From an uncultured Candidatus Saccharibacteria bacterium (GTDB taxonomy: Bacteria; Patescibacteriota; Minisyncoccia; Phycocordibacterales; DATDWN01), in assembly GCA_964469605.1 (NCBI GenBank), contig CAYXZA010000001.1, positions 6,899-70,898 on the forward strand: 64,000 nt of DNA, given 5' to 3'. Under the pieces are notes generated by a model, which was not told where the DNA came from, did no database searches, and was given only the letters and a program-made list of their open reading frames with translations. The position numbers and the translations under genes were made by a program. Below are positions 4,000 through 30,872 of the stretch, piece after piece; positions within the stretch are counted from its first letter, which is position 1, and every line of letters starts with the position of its first letter.

Positions 4000-4839
4000 T
4001 TAACTTTTAATCAAAGAGTATCTACTCCACCTCCTTTCGCCTGTCTTTTTAACCAGACCCCTGTCTATTAGATTTATAAGCTCCCTTTGTATAGTTTTTT
4101 CACTACAGTCCTTTATAATCTGGCTTATAGTTCCTATTGTAATATTGTCATTTTTAGCCAAAATAGAGATTATAGAATTTTGTCTGTTAGACTTCTTTGT
4201 CACATCATTTACCACATTGTTTACAGTATTTTTGTCTTTTAAACTATATTGGACATTTGATGTTTTTATAAAAGACTTTTCAGAATTAACCATTTCGACA
4301 GCCTTGTTTTCGTGAATATCAAAAAAGTTTTTTTCAAATCCAAATTTTACAGAAGAAACATCTTTCTTTTCAAAAGAACTTGCAAAATGAATTAGGTTTA
4401 GAAACTCATCTTTTAGTATTCTAAAATTCATATCTGATACTAGACCTGAAAAGTTAGCGATCTCTAAAAGAGAAACTATTTCCAAAATATTATTTTTCAA
4501 AAGATTTAAAAATTCTTGTTCTCTAAATTTTAAAACATCTTTGAAACTTAAAATAAAAGACAGTAAACTTGAAACTTTGGATCTGAGAGTCCATTTCATA
4601 GGTTCAGAATCTCCGAAAAGATTTGTAACCATATAAAGTGCCGTTGCTAATTTTTCTGTCTTTTTATAAATAAAGATAAAAGACTTATCATCACCAAAAA
4701 AATCTATACTTTTGGCTGTATTTTGTATGTCTTTTACGGTTTGTCCCTGAATATTATTTGACTGTCCTTGTTGATTTTGGTTTATGTCCATTTTAGTCTT
4801 TAAGACTTTTAGATATGTCTTTTTCAAAAAGATTTTCAC
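4000..4839 (-). CDS. Hypothetical protein with a C-terminal winged-helix/HTH-like DNA-binding segment (putative regulator)
   Basis: The C-terminus (...ISQIIKDCSEKTIQRELINLIDRGLVKKTGERRWSRYSLI) resembles DeoR/winged-helix HTH regulators. It lies next to a long AT-rich upstream intergenic region (3468-3999). Confidence 0.35.
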   Translation of the reverse strand: MKIFLKKTYLKVLKTKMDINQNQQGQSNNIQGQTVKDIQNTAKSIDFFGDDKSFIFIYKKTEKLATALYMVTNLFGDSEPMKWTLRSKVSSLLSFILSFKDVLKFREQEFLNLLKNNILEIVSLLEIANFSGLVSDMNFRILKDEFLNLIHFASSFEKKDVSSVKFGFEKNFFDIHENKAVEMVNSEKSFIKTSNVQYSLKDKNTVNNVVNDVTKKSNRQNSIISILAKNDNITIGTISQIIKDCSEKTIQRELINLIDRGLVKKTGERRWSRYSLIKS

Positions 4840-4928
4840 TAAAAGACTTATTTGATTGATACATTGTCCATTATAGATAAATCACATATTTTTAGCAAGA
4901 TTTTTATAAAAAATGTTATGATATTTAT

Positions 4929-7133
4929 ATGGCAAAAATTAAAAAAGAACAAAAGAAAAAAAAGTTAGATGACGAATTTGAAGAAAAAGAATCCTACTTA
5001 AAAACAGAAACCACACAAGGTATTTTAGCTATATTGTTTTTTGTTTTGGGAATATTTTTTATATTAAGCGGTTTCCAAAAATCCGGCAAAGTTGGGTTGA
5101 TAGTTTTTAAGATTTTTGAAAAACTTTTTGGATACGGTTTCTGGCTTATACCGCTTATATTTATACTTCTTAGTGCTTCATTTTTTAATTCTTTAAAAAA
5201 GAAGTTGGCTCTAACTCACAGTATAGGTGGGTTACTATTTTTTGTATCAACTTTATCTATATTAAATATATTTACAGAAAAAATGTCTGGACTTGGTAAA
5301 GGTGGTTTTATTGGTGGATTTATATCTACCCCACTAACCTCTCTTTTTGACATATATGCTTCTGTTATCATACTTTTATCATTTATTGTTATTTCTATTT
5401 TGATAATGTTTGATATACCTCTGAAAATCAGCTTCCAAAATATTTTCTTTAAAAAAGAAGATTCTCTAAAAACAATTGACGAAGATAAAGAGATAATACT
5501 AAATCCAGAGACCAAAAAAGCACTAGAAGAATCCAAAGAAAATAAAGAGATTAAAACTGAAAAACCAAAAGAAGTTAAAGAAAAACAAACATCAGATTTT
5601 GAACCACTACTCGGTAGAGTTACTTTAGCTGGAAAAGAATTTATTCCTCCTCCACTTAATCTTTTAGAGAAAGACAAGGGGAAACCAGAAGTTGGTGACA
5701 TAAAAGCAAATTCAAATATTATAAAAAGAACTTTGGCTAATTTTGGTATAAATGTAGAAATGGATGAAGTTTCAATAGGACCATCTATAACAAGATATGC
5801 ATTGAAACCAGCCGAGGGTGTAAAACTATCAAAAATAGTCTCTCTTCAAAATGATATTTCTCTGGCTTTGGCAGCACATCCTATCAGAATAGAAGCTCCT
5901 ATACCTGGAAAATCTCTTGTTGGTATAGAGATACCAAACAGTAGTAAAACAAAAGTTAGATTAGGATCACTTCTTTCTAACCCAGAATTTCAAGAGTCTG
6001 ACAAACCTCTATTTTTCTGTCTAGGTAAAGGTATTTCAGGTCACTCGTATTTTGCAAACTTGGCAAAAGCACCACATATGCTCATAGCAGGTTCAACTGG
6101 TTCTGGAAAATCTGTAACTATACATGCAGTTATAACATCACTTCTTTATAGAAATTCACCAGACAATTTAAAATTTATTATGGTTGATCCAAAAAGAGTA
6201 GAATTGACCTTGTATAACAAAATACCTCATCTCCTTACACCAGTCATAACCGATGCAAAAAAGACAATAATGGCACTTAAATGGGCTGCAAAGGAAATGG
6301 ATAGAAGATATGACATACTTCAAGCAAATTCACTTCAAAATATTTCTTCGTATCACGAAAAAATAGTTGAACCAGCTATCAAAAAAGCAAAATCCGATAA
6401 AAATGCAAAAATGGATGGTATTGAAACTATGCCTTATATAGTCATTGTTATAGATGAACTGGCAGATATTATGCAGGCATACCCTAGAGAACTTGAATCT
6501 GGAATTGTTAGACTAGCACAAATGTCCAGAGCCGTAGGAATACACCTTATACTTTCAACTCAAAGACCAAGTGTTAATGTTATTACAGGTCTTATAAAAG
6601 CAAACATACCTTCAAGAATCGCTCTTCAAGTTGCCTCTCAAATAGACTCAAGAACAATACTTGATATGTCCGGAGCGGAAAAACTTCTTGGTGCCGGAGA
6701 TATGCTCTATCTATCAGGAGAAATGTCTCAACCTCAAAGAATTCAATCTGCATACCTATCAGAAGATGAACTTAAATCTGTTGTAAACTATCTTGCATCA
6801 AACTATCAAAACGAACTACCAGAATCAATAGACCTCTCACCAAATTCAAACATCAACACAGAAAATAATCCCATCTTTTCATCCGATGTAACATCTGATG
6901 AAAATGAGGAAGATGATGATCTTTACGAAGAAGCTAGAATGACAGTTATACAAGCTGGAAAAGCATCTACATCGTTTTTACAAAGAAAACTTGGTATAGG
7001 ATATGCAAGAGCAGCTAGACTTATAGATATTTTGGAAGAAAGATCTGTTATAGGCCCAGGGTCAGGTGCAAAACCAAGAGATGTGCTTATAAAACCAGAG
7101 GATAATATAGGTCAACAAACAGAAACAGCATGA
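4929..7133 (+). CDS. ftsK: DNA translocase FtsK/SpoIIIE
   Basis: Has N-terminal transmembrane segments, a Walker A motif (GSTGSGKSV) and a Walker B motif (IVIDELADIM). The C-terminus carries a gamma/winged-helix domain (SFLQRKLGIGYARAARLIDILEE). Confidence 0.9.
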   Translation: MAKIKKEQKKKKLDDEFEEKESYLKTETTQGILAILFFVLGIFFILSGFQKSGKVGLIVFKIFEKLFGYGFWLIPLIFILLSASFFNSLKKKLALTHSIGGLLFFVSTLSILNIFTEKMSGLGKGGFIGGFISTPLTSLFDIYASVIILLSFIVISILIMFDIPLKISFQNIFFKKEDSLKTIDEDKEIILNPETKKALEESKENKEIKTEKPKEVKEKQTSDFEPLLGRVTLAGKEFIPPPLNLLEKDKGKPEVGDIKANSNIIKRTLANFGINVEMDEVSIGPSITRYALKPAEGVKLSKIVSLQNDISLALAAHPIRIEAPIPGKSLVGIEIPNSSKTKVRLGSLLSNPEFQESDKPLFFCLGKGISGHSYFANLAKAPHMLIAGSTGSGKSVTIHAVITSLLYRNSPDNLKFIMVDPKRVELTLYNKIPHLLTPVITDAKKTIMALKWAAKEMDRRYDILQANSLQNISSYHEKIVEPAIKKAKSDKNAKMDGIETMPYIVIVIDELADIMQAYPRELESGIVRLAQMSRAVGIHLILSTQRPSVNVITGLIKANIPSRIALQVASQIDSRTILDMSGAEKLLGAGDMLYLSGEMSQPQRIQSAYLSEDELKSVVNYLASNYQNELPESIDLSPNSNINTENNPIFSSDVTSDENEEDDDLYEEARMTVIQAGKASTSFLQRKLGIGYARAARLIDILEERSVIGPGSGAKPRDVLIKPEDNIGQQTETA

Positions 7134-11821: not shown

Positions 11822-13264
11822 CTATTCTTTTCTTAAAAATAGTGGTTTTTCTAGTTTATTTTGTTTTATAGCATCTCTTATCTTCAAACTAGTTTCTGGC
11901 ATTATAGGCTCCAATAAAGTTGATACAAAATAAAGTCTTTTAACTAAAAAATCTATCATCTCTATACCCTTCTCTTTTTCTGTTTTTACAACCTTAAAAG
12001 GTTGATTTTCTTGTATATACAGATCAAGTTCAGAAATTTTCTGCCAAATATAATCAGTGGCTTTATTTATCTCAAAATTATTCAACAAGTTAAAATACTC
12101 TTCAATATTTTCAGAATCAACATCAGAAATGTAAACAGGAGTATCTAAATTTGTCTCAGCCATCTTCATTATACGAGAAACTAGATTTCCCAATCCGTTT
12201 GCCAAATAGCTATTGTAACTTTCTTTAAGCCTTTCCATTGTCATGTCAGAGTCTTCAAAACAAGATAGCTCTTTTACCACAAAAAATCTTAAAACATCAG
12301 CTCCGTATATAGAAACAACATCATAAGGATTTATAACATTACCGAGTGACTTACTCATCTTTTGACCTCCGCTTAAAATAAAACCATTTATAACAATACG
12401 ATTTGAATTTGGAAGACCTGCTGACATAAGCATTGCTTGCCACATTGCTGACTGCTGTCTTAGATTGTCTTTACCAGCATACTGAACAGGAGTGCCATTT
12501 ATCCAATATTTTTCAAAAGTAACAATATCATTTGGCCAACTTAAAGTTGAAATATAGTTTATAAGTGCATCAAACCAAACATACATAACATGATCAGGAT
12601 CATTTGGCACAGGAACACCCCAAGACATTTTTGACCTAAGTCTTGAAATACTAAAATCTTCAAGTCCTCTTTCTACAAATTTTTTTATTTCAGTAAAACG
12701 AAAATCTGGCACAACAAAATCTGGATTTTTTTCATAAAAATCTAGTAGTGGTTTTTGATATTTACTCCACCTAAAAAAATAATTTTCCTCTTCCCTTATT
12801 TCAAGTTCCCTGTTTGGATGTATAGAACATTTACCATCAACCAACTCTGAATCAGTTTTTTCAAGTTCACATCCAATACAATATTTAATCTTGTAATTTT
12901 TTTTGTATATATCTCCATTTTGAAAGCAAAGATTCCAAAAATATTGAGCTGACTTTTGATGTTCTTTGTTTGTAGTTCTTATAAAATGTAAATCACTTGA
13001 AAGATTTAACAGCTCTTTCAATCCTTTAAACCTATCAGCAAAAAAATCAACATAATCTTGAGTCTCCTTACCTGCCTTTAAAGCTTCGTCAAAAATCTTT
13101 TGACCATGCTCATCTGTTCCTGTGTTAAAATACACATCAAAACCTTGAATCTTTTTCGATCTAGCTATTATATCAGCCCTAACTATTTCAGCGGCAAAAC
13201 CAATATGAGGATCCGCATTTACATAAGGAAGAGTTGTTGTTATATAAAAAGTTTTCTTTTGCAT
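11822..13264 (-). CDS. metG: Methionyl-tRNA synthetase (short form)
   Basis: A class I HIGH-like motif (PHIGFA), a zinc knuckle (CIGCELE...CSIHPN) and KMSKSLGN are all present. Confidence 0.9.
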   Translation of the reverse strand: MQKKTFYITTTLPYVNADPHIGFAAEIVRADIIARSKKIQGFDVYFNTGTDEHGQKIFDEALKAGKETQDYVDFFADRFKGLKELLNLSSDLHFIRTTNKEHQKSAQYFWNLCFQNGDIYKKNYKIKYCIGCELEKTDSELVDGKCSIHPNRELEIREEENYFFRWSKYQKPLLDFYEKNPDFVVPDFRFTEIKKFVERGLEDFSISRLRSKMSWGVPVPNDPDHVMYVWFDALINYISTLSWPNDIVTFEKYWINGTPVQYAGKDNLRQQSAMWQAMLMSAGLPNSNRIVINGFILSGGQKMSKSLGNVINPYDVVSIYGADVLRFFVVKELSCFEDSDMTMERLKESYNSYLANGLGNLVSRIMKMAETNLDTPVYISDVDSENIEEYFNLLNNFEINKATDYIWQKISELDLYIQENQPFKVVKTEKEKGIEMIDFLVKRLYFVSTLLEPIMPETSLKIRDAIKQNKLEKPLFLRKE

Positions 13265-17604: not shown

Positions 17605-18936
17605 CTATATTAAAGAATTTCTAATTATTTCCTTAACTTCATCAACAGTTTTCCTCTCTTGAACCCCAGTATCTCTGTATCTTAAGGTCACAGTTTTATC
17701 TTTTTCAATGGTGTCGAAATCCACAGTAACACAAAAAGGTGTTCCTACCTCATCTTGTCTCCTGTATCTCTTACCAATATTTCCATTGTCATCAAACTCA
17801 ACTGTTCCAAAATCTTTTTTAAGTTCTCTGTATATTTCTCTTGCACTAGAAACTAAATTCTCTTTATTTTTTAAAAGAGGAAAAACTGCACACTTAACAG
17901 GAGCAATTTTTGGAGACAGTTTCAGTACAGTGCGAATCTCCCCTTCATTATCTTCTTCAAAATAAGCATTTGAAAGAACAGCTAAAACAAGTCTTTCTAA
18001 ACCAAAAGTTGGTTCTATACAATGAGGTATAAACCTATCTTTTGTAGGTTCATCAAAATACGACAAATCAACACCAGAGAAACTGCTGTGATTTTTTAGA
18101 TCAAAATCTGTTCTATAAGCAAGCCCTAGCAATTCTTTTTGTCCAAAAGGAAAATCAAACTCTATATCAACACTTCGTTTTGAATAGTGGGCTCTGTCAG
18201 ATTCAGAAACTTCTATTTTATGAATTTTAGAATCATCAAGACCAATTGTTTTTAAAAATTTAAACTGCTCTAAAAGGAGTTTTTCAAAAACACCCATCAC
18301 CTCTTTTTCATCTCTAGGATCAACAAAATACTCTATCTCCATTTGTTTAAATTCACGAAGTCTAAAAATAAAATCTCTTGGAGCTATCTCGTTTCTAAAA
18401 GCCTTACCTATCTGGGCTAAACCAAAAGGAAGTTTTGGATGCATTGAATCTAAAATATTTTTAAAATTAAGAAACATACCCCCAGCAGTTTCAGGTCTAA
18501 GATATGTTATAGAAGATTCATCCTCTGTGGCCCCAACATAAGTCCTAAACATCATATTAAATTGTTTTGAAGAACCCAAGTTTCCTCCACAGTCAGGACA
18601 AACATTCAGATCTTTTAAATGATCAGTTCTAAATCTATGTTTGCATTTTTGACATTCAGATAAAGGATCATTAAACCCGGATATATGACCAGATGCTTCC
18701 CAAGCTTTTGGATTCATTATTATTGAAGCATCAACACCATATACATCTTCCCTATCTGTCACAAACATTTTCCACCAAATATTTTTTATATTATGAGCTA
18801 GTTCAACTCCATAAGGTCCATAATCATAAGTTCCAGCCATACCACCATATATTTCAGAGCCTTGAAATATAAAACCTCTTCTCTTACAGAGAGATACTAT
18901 TTTTTCCATTAGATTATTTTCGTTCATACAAAACAC
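17605..18936 (-). CDS. glyQS: Glycyl-tRNA synthetase (alpha2 type)
   Basis: N-terminal RRGFIFQGSEIYGGMAGTYDYGPYG is characteristic of alpha2 GlyRS. A class II core and a C-terminal anticodon-binding domain follow. Confidence 0.85.
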   Translation of the reverse strand: MFCMNENNLMEKIVSLCKRRGFIFQGSEIYGGMAGTYDYGPYGVELAHNIKNIWWKMFVTDREDVYGVDASIIMNPKAWEASGHISGFNDPLSECQKCKHRFRTDHLKDLNVCPDCGGNLGSSKQFNMMFRTYVGATEDESSITYLRPETAGGMFLNFKNILDSMHPKLPFGLAQIGKAFRNEIAPRDFIFRLREFKQMEIEYFVDPRDEKEVMGVFEKLLLEQFKFLKTIGLDDSKIHKIEVSESDRAHYSKRSVDIEFDFPFGQKELLGLAYRTDFDLKNHSSFSGVDLSYFDEPTKDRFIPHCIEPTFGLERLVLAVLSNAYFEEDNEGEIRTVLKLSPKIAPVKCAVFPLLKNKENLVSSAREIYRELKKDFGTVEFDDNGNIGKRYRRQDEVGTPFCVTVDFDTIEKDKTVTLRYRDTGVQERKTVDEVKEIIRNSLI

Positions 18937-21456: not shown

Positions 21457-24400
21457 TTACAAGACTTCTATAGAGAAATGAGTTTTTTTATCTTTTAAAC
21501 TAACTTCAAAAGTTAAATCACCGTCTTCAAAAACAATTTCCTTTGCACCGACTGTCTTTTTTATAATCTCAGAAAAAGATTTGATGATTTTCTGTATATC
21601 AGAAGAAGCTGAAACTTTAAGTAAGATAATATTTTTTGAAATTAGATTCATTTTCTTTCTGCCATCTTGAACCGCTCTTATAAAATCACGGCAAATACCC
21701 TCCTCTATCAGTTCATCGGTTAAGTTTGTATCAAGAACAATGTCAGCAAGTGAAGAATCCACCTCTATTTCTTTAACATTAACTTCATCTTTAATAATTT
21801 CTAGTATTTCAGTATCCAAATCTGTATTTACATATAGTTTATACAGAGGTTGTCTGACTTTGATAGAAACCTTTTCTCTTTGCATTAAAACATTTGAAAC
21901 TATCTCTCTTGCTTTTTGCATAGAAGAAAGCAGATTATCATTTACCTGCCTATTTACTTTTGGCCAATTATCCAAATGAACACTTATGGAATCACCACCA
22001 TCTCTTAATCTCAGATACAGACTCTCTGCTAAAAATGGCATAAACGGAGCCAAGACTTTTGATAATTCTTTCAAAACATATTTTGTATAAAACAAGGCAG
22101 ATTTTCTATCATCTTCATTTTCTGATTTAAACCTCTCTCTTGATCTCCTGATATACCAAACAGAAAAATCATCTATAAATGAAATTATAGGTTTTGTAGC
22201 TTTATCTATTTCATACAAATCCATAGACAAAGTCACCTCTTTTATAAGAACAGCTAATTTATCTAGTATCCAACTATCCAAAACTGATTCTTTTGGTAGA
22301 TTAGAAATATCCTCTTTATACATATCATAAAAAGAATAAATATTTTCAAGTTTTAAAACTATTTTTTTATAAACCTCATCTACCAATTTTTCTGAGAAAT
22401 TGAAATCTTCAGCTTTAACAAGTGGAGATGATAGGAGTAAATACCTTATACTATCGGCACCGTATTTATTTATAGTATCCATAAGATCTGGATAGTTTTT
22501 AAGTTTTTTAGACATCTTTCTACCATCTTCAGCAAGCACAAGACCATTTACCAAAACATTTTCATAAGGACTTTTACCAAAAAGAGCTGTTCCTAAAACT
22601 AAAAGTGTATAGAACCAACCCCTTGTCTGATCAAGTCCTTCTGCTATAAATTCTGCCGGAAACATTAAACTATCAACTTTATCAAACTCATTTTTATTCT
22701 TAAAAGGATAATTTTGTTGTGCAAAAAACATAGAACCGGATTCATACCAACAATCAAAAACATCAGGAATTCTTTTTAGTTTCTGACCTTCATCATCAAA
22801 AACTTCTACATCATCTATAAATGGCCTATGCAGATCAACTTCAAAATCTTCATTTACAGGAAGCTGACGAAAATCAACCTCTCTAACTTCTGCATTATCC
22901 CAATCACTTTTATAATCCAAATACATCTCTCTTTTAGATAAACCCTTTGAAACCAGGTCTAAAATAATAAGTGGTGCTCCGTGAGAAACTATTAGTATAT
23001 TTTTACCTTGATATTTTTTATCTATATCATATATAAACTCGGACACTCTTTTTCTAACATCATCCCAATTTTCATCTCCATCTACTTTTTTTTCAAACTT
23101 ATCTTTTTTTTGTGGAAAATTTTCCAGATATGTTGACCATAATTTACCATTAAAGGATTTTGCTTGAAGCTCAATTAACCTTTCATCAGTTTCTATTTGA
23201 CCAGAAAATCCAATTTCTTTAGATAACAACTGGGCAGTTTGCATTGTTCTCTTAAAAGGAGATGAAAAGATTACATCAATTTTTTCATTTATATTTTTAG
23301 CTGAGGATATAACATCTTGAATACCTGAATCTATTAGAGAATCTTCACCATCATAAATACACGAAATTACAGATTTTTCATTTGACTTTGATCTTCCATG
23401 CCTTACTAGAAAATAATTATTTCTCTTTGGTATATGTTTTTTTATATCTGAAATAGATTCAAAAACATATTCCTTTCCTTTTTCATCAGTCCAAACAGGA
23501 AGAGGTGCTCCCCAAAATCTAGATCTAGATATTGCCCAATCTGGAGCACCCTCTATCCAATTACCAAATCTATTTTCCCCTATTTGTTTTGGAATCCATT
23601 TAACTTTTCTGTTATTTTCAAGCATTTTCTCTTTCAAACTCTCTATCTTTACAAACCAAGAACTTGTAGCATAGTTTAAAAGTGGACTATCACATCTCCA
23701 ACAATGAGGATATGAGTGGACAATTTTTTCCTTTGCAAAAAGCAGTCCGCTATGTGCCAAATATTTTATAATCTCAATATCTGTTTTTTGATGACCATCT
23801 TTGTCATCTGATTTTGGTTTTACAAAAAAACCTTTAAAATCCAAAATCTCATCTTTAAATGTTCCGTCTGTTTTTACATGTTGAATAAAAGGCAGACTAT
23901 ATTTTTTAAGTAGAGAGTAGTCATCATTTCCAAAAGCTGGTGCAATATGAACAATACCTGTTCCATCTTCTGATGTCACAAAATCACCTTCATAAATTTT
24001 CCAACCATTTTCTCTGTTTTCTATTTTTTCATTTTCTGAATAATAATTGAAAAGTGGTTTATATCTTTTTCCTAAAACTTCATCAACTAAAACAGTTCTC
24101 AAAATTTTAAAATTTTCTTTAAATACAGCTTCAACTCTTGATTTTGCGATTATGTATTTATTTTCATCAACTCCACTAGAAACTTCAACATATTCAATAT
24201 CTTTATTTATGGCCAAAGCAACATTTCCAGGAAGTGTCCAAGGTGTTGTTGTCCAAACCAAAAGATAAGTATTTTCCAAACCTTCTAATTTAAACTTCAC
24301 ATATACAGAAATATCGGTTATATCTTTGTAACCCAGATTGACCTCAAAATTTGAAAGTGTTGTCTCGCATCTAGGACAAAGATGCATTGATTTGAATCCT

Positions 24401-24936
24401 TTATAGATAAGCCCTTTATCATAAAGATTTTTAAATGACCACCAGATACTTTCAGTATATGTCTTGTCCATTGTCCTATAATCATTTTCCATATCAACCC
24501 ATCTCCCAGTTCTAGGTATAACCTCTTTCCAAATATCAGCATATTCCAAAACAGAATTCTTTGCCTCTTTATTAAAATTACCAACTCCATAATCTAAAAT
24601 ATCTTTCTTTGTTTTAAGATTTAATTTCTTCTCTATCAAATTTTCGATCGGAAGACCGTGACAGTCCCAACCCCACCTTCTCAAAACCTTTTTGCCCTGC
24701 ATTGTTTTGTATCTAGGAATAGCATCTTTTATAGAACTAGCCAAAAGGTGTCCGTAATGTGGCTCACCTGTGGCAAATGGTGGACCATCATAAAAAACAA
24801 AACTACCACCGTCTTTTTCTAGACTTTTTTCAAAAATATTATTTTCTTTCCAAAAAGCAAAAACTGCCTCCTCCCTTTTGGCAACTTCACTTTTTTCTTT
24901 TTTATCTTTATTTGACGACTGATCCATAAAATCCAT
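21457..24936 (-). CDS. ileS: Isoleucyl-tRNA synthetase with an inserted histidine-phosphatase-like domain
   Basis: HYGH (PPFATGEPHYGHLL), a CP1 editing region and KMSKKLKN are present. Between the ...WAISRSRFWGAPLP and ...DCWYESGS segments there is an extra ~180 aa carrying LVRHGRSKSNE and IVSHGAPL motifs. Confidence 0.9.
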   Translation of the reverse strand: MDFMDQSSNKDKKEKSEVAKREEAVFAFWKENNIFEKSLEKDGGSFVFYDGPPFATGEPHYGHLLASSIKDAIPRYKTMQGKKVLRRWGWDCHGLPIENLIEKKLNLKTKKDILDYGVGNFNKEAKNSVLEYADIWKEVIPRTGRWVDMENDYRTMDKTYTESIWWSFKNLYDKGLIYKGFKSMHLCPRCETTLSNFEVNLGYKDITDISVYVKFKLEGLENTYLLVWTTTPWTLPGNVALAINKDIEYVEVSSGVDENKYIIAKSRVEAVFKENFKILRTVLVDEVLGKRYKPLFNYYSENEKIENRENGWKIYEGDFVTSEDGTGIVHIAPAFGNDDYSLLKKYSLPFIQHVKTDGTFKDEILDFKGFFVKPKSDDKDGHQKTDIEIIKYLAHSGLLFAKEKIVHSYPHCWRCDSPLLNYATSSWFVKIESLKEKMLENNRKVKWIPKQIGENRFGNWIEGAPDWAISRSRFWGAPLPVWTDEKGKEYVFESISDIKKHIPKRNNYFLVRHGRSKSNEKSVISCIYDGEDSLIDSGIQDVISSAKNINEKIDVIFSSPFKRTMQTAQLLSKEIGFSGQIETDERLIELQAKSFNGKLWSTYLENFPQKKDKFEKKVDGDENWDDVRKRVSEFIYDIDKKYQGKNILIVSHGAPLIILDLVSKGLSKREMYLDYKSDWDNAEVREVDFRQLPVNEDFEVDLHRPFIDDVEVFDDEGQKLKRIPDVFDCWYESGSMFFAQQNYPFKNKNEFDKVDSLMFPAEFIAEGLDQTRGWFYTLLVLGTALFGKSPYENVLVNGLVLAEDGRKMSKKLKNYPDLMDTINKYGADSIRYLLLSSPLVKAEDFNFSEKLVDEVYKKIVLKLENIYSFYDMYKEDISNLPKESVLDSWILDKLAVLIKEVTLSMDLYEIDKATKPIISFIDDFSVWYIRRSRERFKSENEDDRKSALFYTKYVLKELSKVLAPFMPFLAESLYLRLRDGGDSISVHLDNWPKVNRQVNDNLLSSMQKAREIVSNVLMQREKVSIKVRQPLYKLYVNTDLDTEILEIIKDEVNVKEIEVDSSLADIVLDTNLTDELIEEGICRDFIRAVQDGRKKMNLISKNIILLKVSASSDIQKIIKSFSEIIKKTVGAKEIVFEDGDLTFEVSLKDKKTHFSIEVL
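22880..23430 (-). other. Histidine-phosphatase (PGAM/RHG-fold)-like insertion domain within ileS (approximate bounds)
   Basis: Contains an RHG motif (FLVRHGRSKSN) and a second catalytic histidine motif (VSHGAP). These sit between conserved IleS catalytic-core blocks. Confidence 0.5.
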
Positions 24937-24968: not shown

Positions 24969-26165
24969 ATGTGCTATATTGAATTTAATAAAAAATTTAT
25001 GAAAAACATATCAAAAGAAGAAAAACTAAGACTTAGGACTTGGGTTGAAATAGACAGATCAGCCATCAAGCACAATGTAAATATTTATAAAAAAATTATT
25101 GGTAAAAATGTAAAACTAATTGCTGTCGTAAAATCAAATGCTTATGGACACGGACTTGTATCATTTTCAAGAGAATTAGAAAAAAACGGAATAAAATCTT
25201 TTGCAACTGACTGTATGGAGGAAGCTACCACACTAAGAGAAGCTGGCATAAAATCTGAAATACTAAATTTGGGTTTTTGTCCTTATACAGATTACCAAAA
25301 TGCTATAAAAAACAATATAACCATTACAATATCAAGTTTAGATTCTTTAAAAAGAGTTTCCAAAGTTAAAGAAAAAATAAACATACATATAAAGGTGGAT
25401 ACTGGTATGGGAAGACAAGGTTTCAAAAATGAAGAACTTGATATTGTATTAAATACACTAAAAAAACATAAAAATATAAATGTATTAGGTGTTTACAGTC
25501 ACCTAGCATCAGCAGATGATTTGGAAAATGTTGCATTTACAGAAAAACAGATTGGGACACTAAACTCTTGGCACAGTAGATTTTTAGAAAATGGTTTTAA
25601 ACCAATAAAACATATCACTGCTTCTGCCGGCACAATGCTTTTTCCTCAATTTCACTTTGATGCAGTTAGGATAGGTATTGGACTTTATGGACTTCACCCA
25701 TCTGACACAACCAAAAAACTTTTTTCAAAAAAATACCCACTTAAACCTGTGCTATGTTGGAAAAGTATTTTAACTGAAATAAAAAAATTTAAAAAAGGAG
25801 ATAAAATTGGATATGATTTAACAGAGACACTGCAAAGAGATTCTAGACTAGCAATAATACCAGTTGGATACTACAACGGTTATCCAAGACTACTTTCCCT
25901 CAAAGGATTGTTTGAACTGAAAGGTAAGAAAATAAAAATCATAGGTAAAGTTTCTATGAATATGATTATTGTTGATATAACCGATGTAAAAAAAGCTAAA
26001 TTGTTTGACGAAGTTATTATTGCTGGTGGCAAAAGCCATATTGCAGATATATATCAAATAGCACAAGATACTGAAAGTATAGTATATGAAGTATCAACAA
26101 AAATAAATCCAATTATAAAAAGATATTACAGTATCAACCCTGACATAAAACGAGTAGTGGTTTGA
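24969..26165 (+). CDS. alr: Alanine racemase
   Basis: PLP-lysine motif AVVKSNAYGHG, and the overall fold III PLP-enzyme layout. Confidence 0.9.
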   Translation: MCYIEFNKKFMKNISKEEKLRLRTWVEIDRSAIKHNVNIYKKIIGKNVKLIAVVKSNAYGHGLVSFSRELEKNGIKSFATDCMEEATTLREAGIKSEILNLGFCPYTDYQNAIKNNITITISSLDSLKRVSKVKEKINIHIKVDTGMGRQGFKNEELDIVLNTLKKHKNINVLGVYSHLASADDLENVAFTEKQIGTLNSWHSRFLENGFKPIKHITASAGTMLFPQFHFDAVRIGIGLYGLHPSDTTKKLFSKKYPLKPVLCWKSILTEIKKFKKGDKIGYDLTETLQRDSRLAIIPVGYYNGYPRLLSLKGLFELKGKKIKIIGKVSMNMIIVDITDVKKAKLFDEVIIAGGKSHIADIYQIAQDTESIVYEVSTKINPIIKRYYSINPDIKRVVV

Positions 26166-26267: not shown

Positions 26268-26909
26268 CTAACTTTCGAGATAAGCCGAAAAATGCCAGCT
26301 ATGCCACCGATCGCTGAGCCGACGCACGCGCCAGTGCCACTGACCTCCAACCGAGCACAAGTACAGAACGCAACGCCCGCCATCCGGATTACGGAGAATG
26401 GTTCCGAAGAAATCGAGATATTTGATACCTCGCTCCCTTCGGAGATTCTCCAAAACGGAGGCGCTGCCTCTGGACTTGTAGTCCACAAGGAGAGCCTCTC
26501 CGACCAGGGCGTCGAGGACGATCTTGCCTGACTTCTTAAGCTGGGCAAACTTTTCCTCTCCGGTGATACTCGTCTCGCCGGGATGGAGAAAGGTCTCGAA
26601 ATTCGCCCAATCCACCTCTTTCAAAGCAAGACTGTCGAGGTCTTGCTCCATATCCCCATAGAGACCATCACCATTGGCTGGACCCCTCCAAATGGTCCAG
26701 CCGGGACCAATGAAGGTGGTTGGGTTGAACTTCTTTGTGCGGTCTATGGCGAGCACTGGGCTCACCACCCAACAAGCCTCCTTCCGGAGGAATTTTTTGA
26801 ACTCTCTGAGCCACCGCTCGCCGTCCTCCCCGGCGAGATTGACGATTAAATGATTCAGCAGTCCGGAGTTAAACTCACGGAGTGCTTTGAAGAGCATGGT
26901 GTTGTCCAT
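26268..26909 (-). CDS. GC-rich island paralog 1 (unknown function; Trp-rich C-terminal domain)
   Basis: Its GC-rich codon usage contrasts with the host. It shares about 140 aa of C-terminal homology with the 27208-28074 product (FNPTTFIGPGWTIW...GEEKF..LKKSGKI..DA...FFGTILRNPDGGRCVLYL...W.WRV). Confidence 0.55.
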   Translation of the reverse strand: MDNTMLFKALREFNSGLLNHLIVNLAGEDGERWLREFKKFLRKEACWVVSPVLAIDRTKKFNPTTFIGPGWTIWRGPANGDGLYGDMEQDLDSLALKEVDWANFETFLHPGETSITGEEKFAQLKKSGKIVLDALVGEALLVDYKSRGSASVLENLRRERGIKYLDFFGTILRNPDGGRCVLYLCSVGGQWHWRVRRLSDRWHSWHFSAYLES

Positions 26910-26955
26910 GGTCTTTTTCCTTTCTGCCAGAGGACCATCTTTAATCTTGTTGGAT

Positions 26956-27002
26956 GGTCATAGCCAAAAAATGCCTACTTTAAGCATTTTTTGGCTATGA
27001 CC
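26956..27002 (-). promoter_or_regulatory. Conserved 5'UTR hairpin (19 bp stem) between promoter and start codon of paralog 1
   Basis: ggtcatagccaaaaaatgc-ttaaagta-gcattttttggctatgacc is a perfect inverted repeat. A nearly identical copy is at 29036-29082. Confidence 0.5.
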
Positions 27003-27064
27003 AAGTCTAAAATTAAAATTTGTCCTACTTGGGGGGTTTGGGGGTTGCCCGAATTTCTCATCCA

Positions 27065-27093
27065 ATTATATCATATTTAGATATAAAAGTCAA
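27065..27093 (-). promoter_or_regulatory. Near-consensus sigma70 promoter driving paralog 1
   Basis: Read on the minus strand: TTGACT, a 17 nt spacer, TATAAT. Confidence 0.55.
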
Positions 27094-27121
27094 TAAATAA
27101 ATTTGTAGGATTAAGAAAAGA

Positions 27122-27151
27122 CCCTGCATCTCTGTACAAGCAGATGCAGGG
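27122..27151 (-). terminator. Hairpin terminator after paralog 2
   Basis: The 10 bp stem ccctgcatct/agatgcaggg is followed, on the minus strand, by a tcttttctt T-rich tract. Confidence 0.5.
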
Positions 27152-27207
27152 CCCAAAGGGCTAAGGTCAAAGGGTTCAAGAAGGTCCCAGTGGCTTAGTC
27201 CAAAGAA

Positions 27208-28074
27208 CTAAATTGCGAGAACGGCGGATGGCTGTCGAATGTCCCAGTTGCCCATTAACCAGGACACGTTCCAGCGCCACCGACCCCTGCTCCAAAACAA
27301 GCACAGAACGTAACGGCCACCGACCGAGTCCCGAAGGACTGTGCCGTCAAAGAAGATGTAACGGGTGTTCCAGTTGACCCTCTCCTTCCACGACTCGGGA
27401 ATGAGGTGCTGGTTCTCCCAGAGCGTGAGGAAGATGTCGGCGTCCAAGCGAATGTAGTCCGATTCTTTGAGACGCCTGAGCTTCTCCTCGCCATTCACGT
27501 ACGTCTCGCCGTCCTTCAGCATCGTCACGTGCTGAACCTTCGTCAGGTCCAGTTCGGTGAGTGCGATGGATCGAGTGTCTGTCTCGTCCACCCAGATGTT
27601 CCAACCTTGGCCGATTAATAATGAATTGGGATTGAAGCGACCATGGTTGATTGGGATGATCTTCGACTCGCCGACGATGATCTTTCCACCGTTCTTGAGG
27701 AACGCCGTGAACTGTCTGCCAGCTTCCTTCGGGTTACGGACGATGAAGTCCTGAAGCCCCGAGTTAGCGAAGTCAATCGTTGCCCAATCAGTATTCACAG
27801 CCAGAGTGGCGATAACCTGATGGGATTGGTCAATTTGGCCGATTAATGAATTGGGATTGAAGCGACCATGGTTGATTGGGATGATCTTCGACTCGCCGAC
27901 GATGATCTTTCCACCGTTCTTGAGGAACGCCGTGAACTGTCTGCCAGCTTCCTTCGGGTTACGGACGATGAAGTCCTGAAGCCCCGAGTTAGCGAAGTCA
28001 ATCGTTGCCCAATCAGTATTCACAGCCAGAGTGGCGATAACCTGATGGGATTGGTCAATAGTGATTTGTCCCAT
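27208..28074 (-). CDS. GC-rich island paralog 2 (unknown function) containing an internal 75-aa tandem duplication
   Basis: Residues ~1-76 and ~77-152 are near-identical (IDQSHQVIATLAVNTDW...GRFNPNSL). The C-terminal domain is homologous to paralog 1 (FFDGTVLRDSVGGRYVLCLFWSRGRWRWNV). The start codon is preceded by a strong SD (caaggagatagacaATG). Confidence 0.55.
   Translation of the reverse strand: MGQITIDQSHQVIATLAVNTDWATIDFANSGLQDFIVRNPKEAGRQFTAFLKNGGKIIVGESKIIPINHGRFNPNSLIGQIDQSHQVIATLAVNTDWATIDFANSGLQDFIVRNPKEAGRQFTAFLKNGGKIIVGESKIIPINHGRFNPNSLLIGQGWNIWVDETDTRSIALTELDLTKVQHVTMLKDGETYVNGEEKLRRLKESDYIRLDADIFLTLWENQHLIPESWKERVNWNTRYIFFDGTVLRDSVGGRYVLCLFWSRGRWRWNVSWLMGNWDIRQPSAVLAI
27608..28060. 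repeat. Tandem direct duplication of about 225 bp (two copies, one 3 nt indel) inside paralog 2
   Basis: Plus-strand ORFs 27643-27846 and 27868-28119 translate identically. The DNA at 27608-27835 nearly equals 27836-28060. Confidence 0.8.
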
Positions 28075-28221
28075 TGTCTATCTCCTTGTGTGCAAGAGGG
28101 CGACTGTATGTCGCCGTAGCTGGGAAAGCCCTATATAAATTACTTTTTTGTAAGACTCTTTCAGCTATGGCGATTTTTTTGAAGATCAGATATGTTTAAG
28201 ACTTTGCAAATTTCTTATCGA

Positions 28222-28250
28222 ATTATATCATATTTAGATTAAAAAGTCAA
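28222..28250 (-). promoter_or_regulatory. Near-consensus sigma70 promoter driving paralog 2
   Basis: Read on the minus strand: TTGACT, a 17 nt spacer, TATAAT. Confidence 0.55.
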
Positions 28251-28278
28251 TAAATAAATTTGTAGGATTAAGAAAAGA

Positions 28279-28308
28279 CCCTGCATCTCTGTACAAGCAG
28301 ATGCAGGG
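28279..28308 (-). terminator. Hairpin terminator after paralog 3
   Basis: The same ccctgcatct/agatgcaggg hairpin as at 27122, followed by a T-rich tract. Confidence 0.5.
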
Positions 28309-28364
28309 CCCAAAGGGCTAAGATCAAAGGGTCCAAGAAGGTCCCAGTGACCAGAGCCAAAGTG

Positions 28365-28952
28365 CTACTTGCGACGAACGAACACGAAGCGACTGTAACC
28401 GTCCCAGAGGGTGTCCCACTTACCGTTGCCATTCAACCAACGACCATCCTCGCCGTGTACAACGTGGAACACGTTAGGATAGCCGTCCGAGTCCGAAATC
28501 GGTTTCATCCCGATGAGTAACCACTCTCCCTTCGGCTGGTCCTTGTACTGCAAACGCAGTTGAGGACCAACTTCAGAAGGACAGAGTTCCAGACCGAGTG
28601 AAATCGCTCGCTCGTAGATGTCGCCACGTGTGGCACCATCATTGAAGCCGAGCTCGGCAACGGAGACATTGACGAGGGGGAGCTCCATCTCGGTTTCGCT
28701 CGCCGTGAAGGCGGGCTTGCCGAGAATGTCGTTACCCCAATTCCCGATTTTGAAGCCCCCGTCCTTGAGTGCCTTTCGGAAATCATCGGCGATCTTCAGT
28801 CCCGTGCCAAGCTTCACCGTCTTCCAAATGGTGAACTGTGGAACCGATAGGGTCAGCTCACCCGAGAGGAAGCGGCGAACGCCGTCCATCCCACCGAGCT
28901 TGTTGACTATTGCTTCTATCTGACCAAGAGTTAATTCCCCGTATTTCATCAC
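28365..28952 (-). CDS. GC-rich island paralog 3 (unknown function)
   Basis: GC-rich. Its C-terminal ~40 aa (DGYPNVFHVVHGEDGRWLNGNGKWDTLWDGYSRF) resemble the paralog 1/2 C-terminal motif more weakly. It carries the same promoter, UTR and terminator cassette. Confidence 0.5.
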   Translation of the reverse strand: MMKYGELTLGQIEAIVNKLGGMDGVRRFLSGELTLSVPQFTIWKTVKLGTGLKIADDFRKALKDGGFKIGNWGNDILGKPAFTASETEMELPLVNVSVAELGFNDGATRGDIYERAISLGLELCPSEVGPQLRLQYKDQPKGEWLLIGMKPISDSDGYPNVFHVVHGEDGRWLNGNGKWDTLWDGYSRFVFVRRK

Positions 28953-29192: not shown

Positions 29193-30872
29193 TTACATCT
29201 CCTCTGGAGTTTTTATACCAAGAAGCCAAAGTCCTGACTGCATAGTTTCTTTGAAAACTTCTATTAAGAAGATTTTATATGGAGAATTTTTATCATCTTT
29301 GTCTACTATTTTTTCTTTTGCATAAAAACTATTAAACTCACCTGAAAGCTCTATCAGATATGTACTTATGTATTGTGGAGCATATTTTAGTCCCGCTCTT
29401 TCTATAACAGAATAAAATCTCTCTAAAAGTTTTTCTAGTTTTGTTACTTTCCAATCTTCTGGAATCAAATCACCTGAAACCAAAGACAGATCATTTGCTT
29501 TTTTTAATATAGAATTTGCTCTGACAGCTGAATATTGTAAATAAGGACCAGAATCCCCTTCAAAAGAAAGTGATTTATTGAAATCAAAAATAATATCAGA
29601 ACCGATTGATTGTTTTAATATAGAATATTTTATAGCACCAATAGCAACCATCTGAGCAATTTCTTTTTTCTTTTCATCTGAAAACTCTCTGTCTTTCATT
29701 TTTTCTAATGTTTTTTCTTTAACCTGATTTATCATTGACTCTGCTGTTATAACATTACCAGTTCTACTAGACATCTTTCCTTCTGGGAGTTTTAACATCC
29801 CATGAGATATATGTTTTAATTTACCTTTTCTTGATGGCATAACTTCACCTATGGCAACCTCTACCACATCAAAAAAACTATCTTGCTCATTTGCTGTTAC
29901 GGTAATAGATAAATCATAATCAAAATTTTCTTTTTTTATGAAAGCAAGACCAACTTCTTTTGCTTCATAAGTTGGCAATCCGTCGCTGTTTAAAAAAACT
30001 CTGGTATGAGTTTTAGGTATAAAATTTTCACCTTTAAATATCACTGCTCCACTATCACCTTTTTCAAAAACTTTACCAATATTTTCAGATACAACTTTTT
30101 TACCAATCTCCCCTGACTGACTTTCTAAAAAATGAAAATTAAAATGACTATCTAGTTTTTTATAAATTTCTTCAAAAAACTCAAAACTTTTTTTTATACC
30201 TTCTTTGTATATTAAATTTATATAACTATCAGATTCTTCATATATTTTCTTATTAATTTCATTTATTTCACTTTTTTCCACAAGGTTTTCATAAAATATA
30301 TTTCCTACTGCATAAGCTTTTTTAAAATCATCTGTTTTTTTATTGAAAATAGCCCACACAGCTTTTGCTATATGAATACCTTTATCACCGTGATAAGTAG
30401 CAACTTGCACATCCGCTCCAAGTGTCTTAATAAGTCTTGATATTGACTCACCAATTGCATTGTTCATTAAATGTCCAATGTGAAATTCTTTAAACGGATT
30501 TGGTTGAGTATGTTCTATAAAAATCTTCTTTCCTTTCAAATTGCTCGGTAAACCCTCACCTTTTTTAGTCCTCTTTAAACAATCCCTTATATATTCTTTT
30601 GTTAAAAAGAAATTCAAAAAACCATTTGGTGCAACTTCAACTTTTTCAATTTCTTTTATTTTTTGATTATTTAATTTTTCTACAAATTCAGCGGATAAAG
30701 TCTTTAAATCCTTACCCTCTTTTTTTGCCATCATCAAAGCTACGGTGCTAGAGTAGTCACCAAAAGAAAGGTTTTGATTTGGTTCAATAGAAAAATCAGT
30801 ATCTAAACCCAAAACCTCGGCTATCCATTTTTTTATTATACTTTCTGTCATTTTATTTTCCAGATGAACCAA
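29193..30872 (-). CDS. argS: Arginyl-tRNA synthetase
   Basis: A class I HIGH motif (FHIGHLMNNAIGE) and a C-terminal DALR anticodon-binding-like region. Length 559 aa. Confidence 0.9.
   Translation of the reverse strand: MVHLENKMTESIIKKWIAEVLGLDTDFSIEPNQNLSFGDYSSTVALMMAKKEGKDLKTLSAEFVEKLNNQKIKEIEKVEVAPNGFLNFFLTKEYIRDCLKRTKKGEGLPSNLKGKKIFIEHTQPNPFKEFHIGHLMNNAIGESISRLIKTLGADVQVATYHGDKGIHIAKAVWAIFNKKTDDFKKAYAVGNIFYENLVEKSEINEINKKIYEESDSYINLIYKEGIKKSFEFFEEIYKKLDSHFNFHFLESQSGEIGKKVVSENIGKVFEKGDSGAVIFKGENFIPKTHTRVFLNSDGLPTYEAKEVGLAFIKKENFDYDLSITVTANEQDSFFDVVEVAIGEVMPSRKGKLKHISHGMLKLPEGKMSSRTGNVITAESMINQVKEKTLEKMKDREFSDEKKKEIAQMVAIGAIKYSILKQSIGSDIIFDFNKSLSFEGDSGPYLQYSAVRANSILKKANDLSLVSGDLIPEDWKVTKLEKLLERFYSVIERAGLKYAPQYISTYLIELSGEFNSFYAKEKIVDKDDKNSPYKIFLIEVFKETMQSGLWLLGIKTPEEM

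Follow-up and report, generated by a model that had tools for sequence, protein, structure and literature searches.

A predicted histidine phosphatase nested in the CP3 domain of a Patescibacteria isoleucyl-tRNA synthetase

Aminoacyl-tRNA synthetases (aaRSs) are among the most conserved of enzymes, and the extra modules found in their bacterial members are usually small RNA-binding or editing pieces. In class Ia, lineage-specific insertions are known from the variable CP3 of isoleucyl-tRNA synthetase (IleRS), from the INS element in ARD2 of IleRS2 and from the leucine-specific domain of LeuRS (PMC7191050; bioRxiv 10.64898/2026.02.03.703510). CP3 itself spans residues 473-534 in the Candida albicans enzyme and 459-526 in that of yeast (PMC7191050; PMC7955072), and in the latter it is preceded by a CP2-3 linker, ‘ARDWNVSRNRYWG’, that lines the pocket for tRNA A76 and reveromycin (PMC7955072). 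Here we describe an ileS gene (21457..24936, minus strand) in a 64,000-nucleotide stretch of contig CAYXZA010000001.1, from an uncultured Candidatus Saccharibacteria bacterium; this whole stretch is referred to as the window. Within CP3 of the encoded type-2 IleRS lies a nested domain of about 194 residues (22849..23430, minus strand) which Pfam (PF00300), AlphaFold2 (AF2) modelling and Foldseek all assign to the histidine phosphatases, and which retains the complete catalytic set of that family. A sequence-only reading of the window had proposed such an inserted histidine-phosphatase (RHG) domain, and this proposal stands, the Pfam threshold being passed and the branch-1 fold confidently predicted.

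The boundaries of the insert follow from alignment with a solved IleRS. Residues 18-502 of the window protein, whose numbering is used throughout, align with residues 10-478 of the Priestia megaterium IleRS2 chain (8c8v), and residues 697-1062 with 483-852, so that residues 503-696 are extra and replace about four residues. The span first given for the insert, 22880-23430, was thus close to the 22849-23430 that the alignment gives. Between the IleRS block WAISRSRFWGAPLP (residues 467-480) and DCWYESGS (residues 728-735) lie 247 residues rather than the roughly 270 first claimed. The two motifs on which the proposal had been built, the RHG-type FLVRHGRSKSNE (residues 509-520, window 23412-23377) and IVSHGAPL (residues 649-656, window 22992-22969), sit within one open reading frame (ORF) as described.

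Conservation was followed in two sets of relatives, a close set of 101 full-length homologues that are 54-66% identical to the window protein and a distant set of 150 listed representatives at 33-45% identity. The latter came from an exhaustive HMMER search with residues 460-740 against 1.84 billion representatives of 50%-identity clusters. In the frame of 8c8v, the insertion point falls between the two Cys pairs of the CP3 zinc knuckle. The window protein has D714 and E716 in the knuckle columns, with D484 on the N-terminal side, instead of Cys, and its close clade has D, N, S or K at these positions; Cys is found there in 72-75 of some 130-136 representatives, i.e., in about half of the insert-bearing relatives. 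Insert length is held between 187 and 206 residues across the close set. The linkers are short and ordered, with a predicted local distance difference test (pLDDT) of 90-97 for the insert and both linkers in the full-length model, and of their residues N506 and P693 do not vary in the close set, while H694 and N695 are nearly invariant there. The description of this position as a hotspot for lineage-specific inserts was a reasonable one, as both the topology and the zinc motif of CP3 vary among solved IleRSs, a zinc motif being present in CP3 of Thermus thermophilus (PMC7191050).

The Pfam His_Phos_1 profile matches residues 509-689 over profile positions 2-181 of 194 (E=1e-26; 94.2 bits against a cut-off of 21.7). 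When the insert was modelled by itself with AF2 from an alignment of 59 stand-alone homologues, the pLDDT came to 93.1 and the predicted TM-score (pTM) to 0.90, and a Foldseek search of the Protein Data Bank (PDB) with the insert returned exclusively members of the histidine-phosphatase/phosphoglycerate mutase (dPGM) superfamily. The top matches were PspA (4ij6/4ij5), PhoE (1h2e), HFP (9mmh), TIGAR, the Entamoeba histolytica PSP, CobC and Rv2419c, at query-based TM-scores (TMq) of 0.73-0.79 and a probability of 1.00. A PDB sequence search with the insert agrees, its nearest structures being small-molecule phosphatases. Judged by these models, the insert is an autonomous alpha/beta module with a branch-1 histidine phosphatase fold.

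Among NCBIfam models (the best 25 of 28 matching families), the highest score of the insert was against dPGM_arch, a short archaeal dPGM model (78.6 bits against a cut-off of 225), followed by the bifunctional RNase H/acid phosphatase model NF005567 (72.7 against 326), PspA (65.7 against 350), CobC (65.6 against 162.9) and SixA (25.6 against 74.5); models of the GpmA/GpmB type gave 19-35 bits against cut-offs of 261-378. In Escherichia coli GpmA, the distal phospho or carboxylate group is bound by R90, Y92, K100, R116/R117 and N186. A profile alignment with GpmA, a lead-level test, places L590 at R90, A592 at Y92 and A654 at N186, lacks the segment of about 30 residues that bears R116/R117, and pairs E589 with the Glu of NERHYG; BLASTP aligned the insert with GpmA over no more than the first 61 residues. 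Membership of the dPGM family was rejected on the unreached equivalog cut-offs and the absent mutase-specific residues. The region expected to form the substrate cap (residues 590-621) is poorly conserved among the representatives, and the net charge of the insert across the homologue set is about -2 +/- 5, i.e., there is no conserved basic surface. The insert therefore looks like a phosphomonoesterase of the PhoE/PspA kind, and we see no sign of an RNA-binding surface.

The pattern of conservation speaks for a working enzyme. The predicted phospho-accepting nucleophile, H513, lies in the RHG motif R512-H513-G514 (23395..23403, minus strand), whose R and H are present in 146 of 146 representatives. 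The second phosphate-binding arginine, R563 of the SSPFKRTMQTA motif (23248..23250, minus strand), is kept in 149 of 149, and the second catalytic histidine, H652 of IVSHGAPL (22981..22983, minus strand), in 148 of 149. The predicted general acid/base, E589 of the DERLIE motif (23170..23172, minus strand), is E in 141 of 151 sequences and D in another 9. With G514 and N519 these residues make up the full catalytic set, to which the structural E622 (kept in 151 of 151 distant representatives) and R630 can be added. Taken together, R512, H513, S559, R563, E589, E622, R630 and H652 show about 99-100% conservation in the distant set. In the close set, the RHG motif, R563, E589 and H652 are invariant, and the invariant positions of the insert comprise N506, R512, H513, N519, G538, S559, R563, T567, E589, E622, R630, H652 and P693. 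The insert averages 46% pairwise identity, where the Rossmann halves have 77%, the editing domain 66%, the anticodon-binding domain 58% and the C-terminal domain 40%. An invariant catalytic set in a domain that has otherwise drifted to 46% identity while holding its length is the pattern of an active enzyme, as opposed to a decaying passenger or a structural spacer. It indicates that the catalytic residues are under strong purifying selection for catalysis, and the insert is probably an active phosphatase, an activity predicted here from sequence. Chance similarity to the RHG and SHG motifs, which the sequence-only reading had named as a way in which it could fail, is excluded by the Pfam E value, by the presence of the other catalytic residues and by their conservation in more than 100 homologues.

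A catalytically dead module that merely enlarges CP3, for instance by stabilising it in place of the lost zinc knuckle, would fit the loss of the knuckle cysteines in the clade of the window protein as well as the variable cap. Against such a structural or regulatory pseudo-enzyme, catalytic residues are all invariant or nearly so over a deep divergence in which the rest of the domain has drifted, and about half of the insert-bearing relatives retain the cysteines, so that the insert is no simple replacement of the knuckle. We consider this reading very improbable and have rejected it on the conservation of the catalytic residues.

The nested domain is a clade-wide feature of Patescibacteria, shared by hundreds of bacteria, and not a one-off. 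The HMMER search gave 168 matches at E<=1e-30, of which the 150 listed mostly align in one stretch across both junctions, typically at about residues 440-750 of proteins of 1100-1200 residues, and all 150 carry the phosphatase domain at the same site. When the full-length protein was the query, all of the 120 best matches were annotated with PF00133 plus PF00300, at 53-69% identity apart from the 100% self-match. The survey of related genomes that had been suggested for the same insertion bears this out: a scan of GTDB species genomes confirmed 45 loci, 41 of which gave IleS ORFs longer than 600 residues, every one with the nested domain at the same site and with the R, H, G, R, E and H catalytic positions intact. 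The record titles name Paceibacterota, Parcubacteria, Kaiser-, Vogel-, Nomura- and Harrisonbacteria and the Patescibacteria group, to which the NCBI names of full-length homologues add Zambryskibacteria and Pacebacteria. A few insert-bearing records on short contigs are labelled, e.g., Rhizobiaceae or Spirochaetales, probably through mis-binning.

This distribution also decides against an assembly, frameshift or gene-calling artefact that fused two genes. A split ORF in one related locus (L043) would suit such an artefact, as would the sole other fused match of a word-index search with the insert, a fragment (P0001) on a short contig with unrelated-looking ends. However, the IleRS sequence runs on in the same frame on either side of the insert, hundreds of assemblies made independently (NCBI, JGI, ENA and Logan) show the identical architecture, and the exact window protein (P0245) is found at NCBI on contigs up to 138 kb. 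With the junctions in frame and recurring, the frameshift or assembly error that the sequence-only reading had offered as its own refutation is excluded, and we rejected the artefact, whose probability we put at next to nothing. The near-uniqueness implied by the single match of the word-index search was itself discarded as an artefact of sensitivity in view of the HMMER and full-length searches. The contig of that match (L001, JGI Ga0490019_037268) conserves both insert junctions in frame. On each side of its IleS fragment (1-640 and 1636-2074) the sequence is unrelated and has stops in the IleS frame, and L001 is probably a metagenome contig that was chimerically assembled or rearranged. An apparently insert-less gene in the closest GTDB relative (L042, flanks 77% and 68% identical) was likewise set aside, as a 100-N scaffold gap lies exactly at the position of the insert and the locus thus provides no evidence of loss. 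Gaps of 100 N occur within ileS of the two closest GTDB relatives (L042, 6111-6210; L002, 2051-2150).

The host ORF is uninterrupted over 1159 residues plus the stop codon. The protein scores 869.3 bits against the NCBIfam ileS model TIGR00392 (cut-off 621.4), the insert dividing the match into two stretches, and Pfam finds tRNA-synt_1, also in two stretches, together with Anticodon_1, the C-terminal DUF5915 and His_Phos_1. Its closest solved structure is the P. megaterium IleRS2 8c8v (phmmer E=1e-219), which along with the yeast, Candida and Thermus IleRSs provides the best PDB matches; IleRS1 scores far lower. The full-length AF2 model (pLDDT 89.2, pTM 0.82) superposes on 8c8v and on 1ile with target-based TM-scores (TMt) of 0.83 and 0.90, respectively. 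The C-terminus has the type-2 organisation, carrying DUF5915 and not the zinc-binding domain of IleRS1, and both class I signatures are present (HYGH, residues 60-63; KMSKK, residues 807-811).

The part N-terminal to the insert (residues 1-502; 23431..24936, minus strand) aligns with 8c8v residues 10-478 and holds the first Rossmann half with HYGH, the CP core, the CP1 editing domain, CP2 and the first strands and helix of CP3. In the editing block WTTTPWTLPGN (residues 228-238), W228, T229-T231, W233 and T234-N238 are invariant in the close set and P232 is near-invariant; in the block GTGIVHIAPAFG..D339, G325, G327, V329, H330, A332, F335, G336 and D339 are invariant and the others nearly so. 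After the insert, the native C-terminal part of CP3 (residues 697-727; 22756..22848, minus strand) starts with FEVDLHRPFIDD and aligns with 8c8v from residue 483. The remainder (residues 728-1159; 21460..22755, minus strand), delimited by motifs, Pfam and the 8c8v alignment, contains DCWYESGS, GLDQTRGWF, KMSKK, the anticodon-binding domain and the type-2 C-terminal domain. The DxW motif that follows CP3 contributes to the Ile pocket, and we take W730 of DCWYESGS to be the Ile-pocket Trp, equivalent to Trp518 of T. thermophilus. By its sequence the protein is a full type-2 IleRS with intact motifs on either side of the insert, for which aminoacylation and editing of Val can be predicted.

Further nested domains occur in the IleRSs of some relatives. 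A second His_Phos domain is found in four of the 150 representatives (P0165, P0158, P0223 and P0235). It sits at about window residue 884, immediately N-terminal to the anticodon-binding domain. The three full-length copies (P0165, P0158 and P0223) keep the RHG and second-Arg motifs, and that of P0235 ends with the end of the sequence. One representative (P0239) has a tandem His_Phos pair in CP3. Best-match analysis of these second and tandem copies gave identities of about 30-38% throughout, values that do not separate duplication from independent capture. GNAT acetyltransferase domains are nested in the IleRSs of P0197 and P0120, at about window residues 272-278 and about 750, and these relatives also carry the His_Phos insert. 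A P-loop kinase-like domain (AAA_18/AAA_33) matches P0167 weakly at about residue 745 (28.9 bits against a cut-off of 29.4). The sites of nested domains in P0197, P0120 and P0167 fall at about window residues 272-303 and 742-759, and the IleRS of P0120 also contains an IS200-like Y1_Tnp segment. The presence of GNAT, kinase-like and extra His_Phos domains in the same backbone, together with the NCBIfam model ‘ileS_w_GNAT’, suggests that IleRS is a permissive carrier able to host several unrelated domains.

The insert search also returned stand-alone relatives of 173-214 residues. In several loci (L050-L052, 5001-5528; L055-L056, 4001-4528) a gene for 175 residues shares 1 nt with the end of a class II aaRS gene (tRNA_anti-codon plus tRNA-synt_2) and is followed by ackA. 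Another stand-alone relative (P0023, L053-L054) is preceded by a GNAT gene and lies about 1.7 kb downstream of a class I aaRS gene, and a Woesearchaeota copy (L059) overlaps a CYTH gene near ackA and pta. Other contexts are mixed and unrelated to translation (rsmD/SpoIIM, CYTH/ackA, trypsin-like). Stand-alone relatives thus adjoin aaRS genes in two lineages only, which is too weak a pattern for an inference of function.

The following scheme is offered with caution. The gene would be the organism's housekeeping type-2 IleRS, into whose CP3, at the former zinc-knuckle tip, a complete PhoE/PspA-like branch-1 phosphatase of about 194 residues may have been inserted in the ancestor of a large Patescibacteria (Paceibacteria/Parcubacteria) clade, the site having presumably been retained since. 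The domain would be an active phosphomonoesterase using the two-step mechanism of its family, in which H513 would attack a phosphate held by R512, R563 and H652 together with N519, giving rise to a phospho-histidine, and E589 would protonate the leaving group and then activate water. The biology is the least certain part: the domain may be a self-contained phosphatase that acts on a small phosphorylated metabolite or nucleotide, with IleRS, expressed constitutively in a very reduced genome, serving mainly as a permissive carrier. We hold it narrowly probable that the insert is such an autonomous phosphatase on small substrates carried by IleRS, because stand-alone relatives exist, the cap is poorly conserved and the insert has no conserved basic surface; a role in the chemistry of aminoacylation or editing is less likely than this. 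Several observations weigh against it. The insert falls below every functional equivalog cut-off of NCBIfam, which means that its substrate cannot be read from homology. The fixed site, the conserved rigid linkers and the repeated extra His_Phos insertions argue for a functional tie to IleRS. CP3 is moreover bracketed by active-site elements, namely the CP2-3 linker at the A76 pocket (PMC7955072) and the DxW motif, and in one stand-alone lineage (P0018 and P0012) the gene overlaps the stop of a neighbouring class II aaRS gene.

A tie of this kind would be explained if the phosphatase were functionally coupled to IleRS, its target being tRNA(Ile) or something produced or bound at the synthetic or editing site. 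It might clear a damaged or toxin-modified CCA end of 2'/3'-phosphate or pyrophosphate, hydrolyse a nucleotide product or a phosphorylated inhibitor, or reverse a regulatory phosphorylation of the synthetase. The flanks of CP3 form part of the A76 pocket, and the conserved linker residues (N506, P693, H694 and N695) and high linker pLDDT suggest a fixed orientation. Some relatives have a second His_Phos domain at another IleRS site or a tandem copy, the weakly matching P-loop kinase-like domain of one relative (28.9 against 29.4 bits) recalls kinase-phosphatase end-healing enzymes, and aaRS genes adjoin the stand-alone relatives in two lineages. On the other hand, the insert is without conserved positive charge, its substrate cap is poorly conserved, and the gene contexts of the stand-alone relatives are heterogeneous. 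Of the four aaRS genes in the window, ileS is the sole carrier of a nested domain, which was found in neither MetRS, ArgRS nor the class II aaRS, although damage to the end would hit all tRNAs. To our knowledge, tRNA ends are not a substrate of any member of the histidine-phosphatase family. The sequence-only reading had suggested that the module could act on nucleotide-type substrates or mischarged products. Indirect evidence speaks slightly against direct handling of tRNA by the phosphatase, and we regard coupling as unlikely; its specific form as a bifunctional repair-and-charge IleRS, in which the phosphatase cleans (pyro)phosphorylated tRNA 3' ends or rids the synthetic site of a nucleotide or a phosphorylated inhibitor, we regard as decidedly unlikely. 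It is more doubtful still that the nested domain supplies a central-metabolic activity missing from reduced genomes and parked in an essential gene, such as phosphoglycerate mutase (PGM) or a phosphoserine- or PhoE-type phosphatase. This would agree with its place in the dPGM superfamily and its best NCBIfam match to the archaeal dPGM model, and neither the 64-kb window nor 425 kb flanking 42 related ileS genes contains another His_Phos gene. PGM was also undetected in several shallow Parcubacteria clades (Jaffe et al. 2020, PMC7304191). Against a mutase stand the dPGM_arch score, far below its cut-off, the replacement of R90, Y92 and N186 and the missing R116/R117 segment in the lead-level alignment, and nearest structures that are phosphatases and not mutases.

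Turning to the surroundings of the gene, four aaRS genes lie within a 20-kb part of the window: a metS-like gene (11822-13264, 480 residues), a class II gene of the HGTP type (17605-18936, 443 residues), ileS and argS (29193-30872). Rfam finds five tRNAs in the window and nothing else. Between alr (24969-26165) and argS, three ORFs of 213, 288 and 195 residues (26268-28952, minus strand) have a GC content of 50-57%, compared with about 30% for the genome, and match nothing in Pfam or PHROGs; this GC-rich island looks like recently acquired foreign DNA. In the stand-alone lineage of L053/L054, the class I aaRS, Ham1-like and HI0933-like genes are called as adjacent fragment pairs (1-2362, 2428-2991 and 4657-5796), which suggests an alternative genetic code with UGA as sense, or frameshifts.

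In the literature searched, a histidine phosphatase nested in an IleRS is not described, and a 2026 preprint on IleRS domain evolution is silent on phosphatases and on Patescibacteria (bioRxiv 10.64898/2026.02.03.703510). The architecture is nevertheless visible in databases through automatic Pfam annotation, and the nested-enzyme variant is real, clade-wide and apparently undescribed. Its interest lies in the fact that a large clade of uncultivated, ultra-small bacteria has kept a second complete enzyme within the catalytic body of a synthetase that is essential. Were the phosphatase coupled to charging, the quality control of tRNA or nucleotides would gain a new layer, and on the repair-and-charge reading this IleRS would be the first known aaRS with a second, phosphoryl-transfer active site serving translation. 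As an autonomous metabolic enzyme, it would instead show that reduced genomes park activities in essential genes, and it might account for steps that appear to be missing from metabolic reconstructions of Parcubacteria. Annotation is affected as well, several close homologues at NCBI being named only ‘class I tRNA ligase family protein’, and the insert can be used as a marker of the clade.

Compared with the type-2 IleRSs of P. megaterium (8C8V) and T. thermophilus (1ILE), the window protein has all domains and motifs in the same order, from HIGH to the type-2 C-terminal domain, but at the tip of CP3 it has 194 residues of phosphatase fold in place of about four, and the CxxC...CxC zinc knuckle present in those enzymes is lost. 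The insert shares fold, size and the R-H-G...R...E...H set with small branch-1 phosphatases such as the phosphoserine phosphatase PspA (4IJ5/4IJ6), PhoE/YhfR (1H2E/1EBB), the riboflavin-pathway phosphatase HFP (9MMH), CobC, Rv2419c and TIGAR, although it is only 18-24% identical to them and is nested rather than free-standing. A histidine phosphatase of the CobC-like kind is also joined to a nucleic-acid enzyme in the bifunctional RNase H/acid phosphatase of NF005567 (Rv2228c type), there as an end-to-end fusion with a different partner.

An unrelated enzyme domain nested in IleRS is also known from NCBIfam NF040702, ‘ileS_w_GNAT’ (isoleucine--tRNA ligase, N-acetyltransferase domain-containing), which the curators treat as an exception model. 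The enzyme there is a GNAT and lies at other sites (about window residues 272-278 and about 750), and the window protein, at 320 bits against a cut-off of 1999 and with no GNAT match in Pfam, is not a member; among the best 25 of 28 matching NCBIfam families there was no model for an IleRS with a histidine phosphatase. Like the other insertions of class Ia synthetases, the nested phosphatase is a surface subdomain between Rossmann-fold elements that varies by lineage. Those insertions are small and non-enzymatic and serve in tRNA binding or structure, whereas the one described here is a complete second enzyme with a predicted active site of its own.

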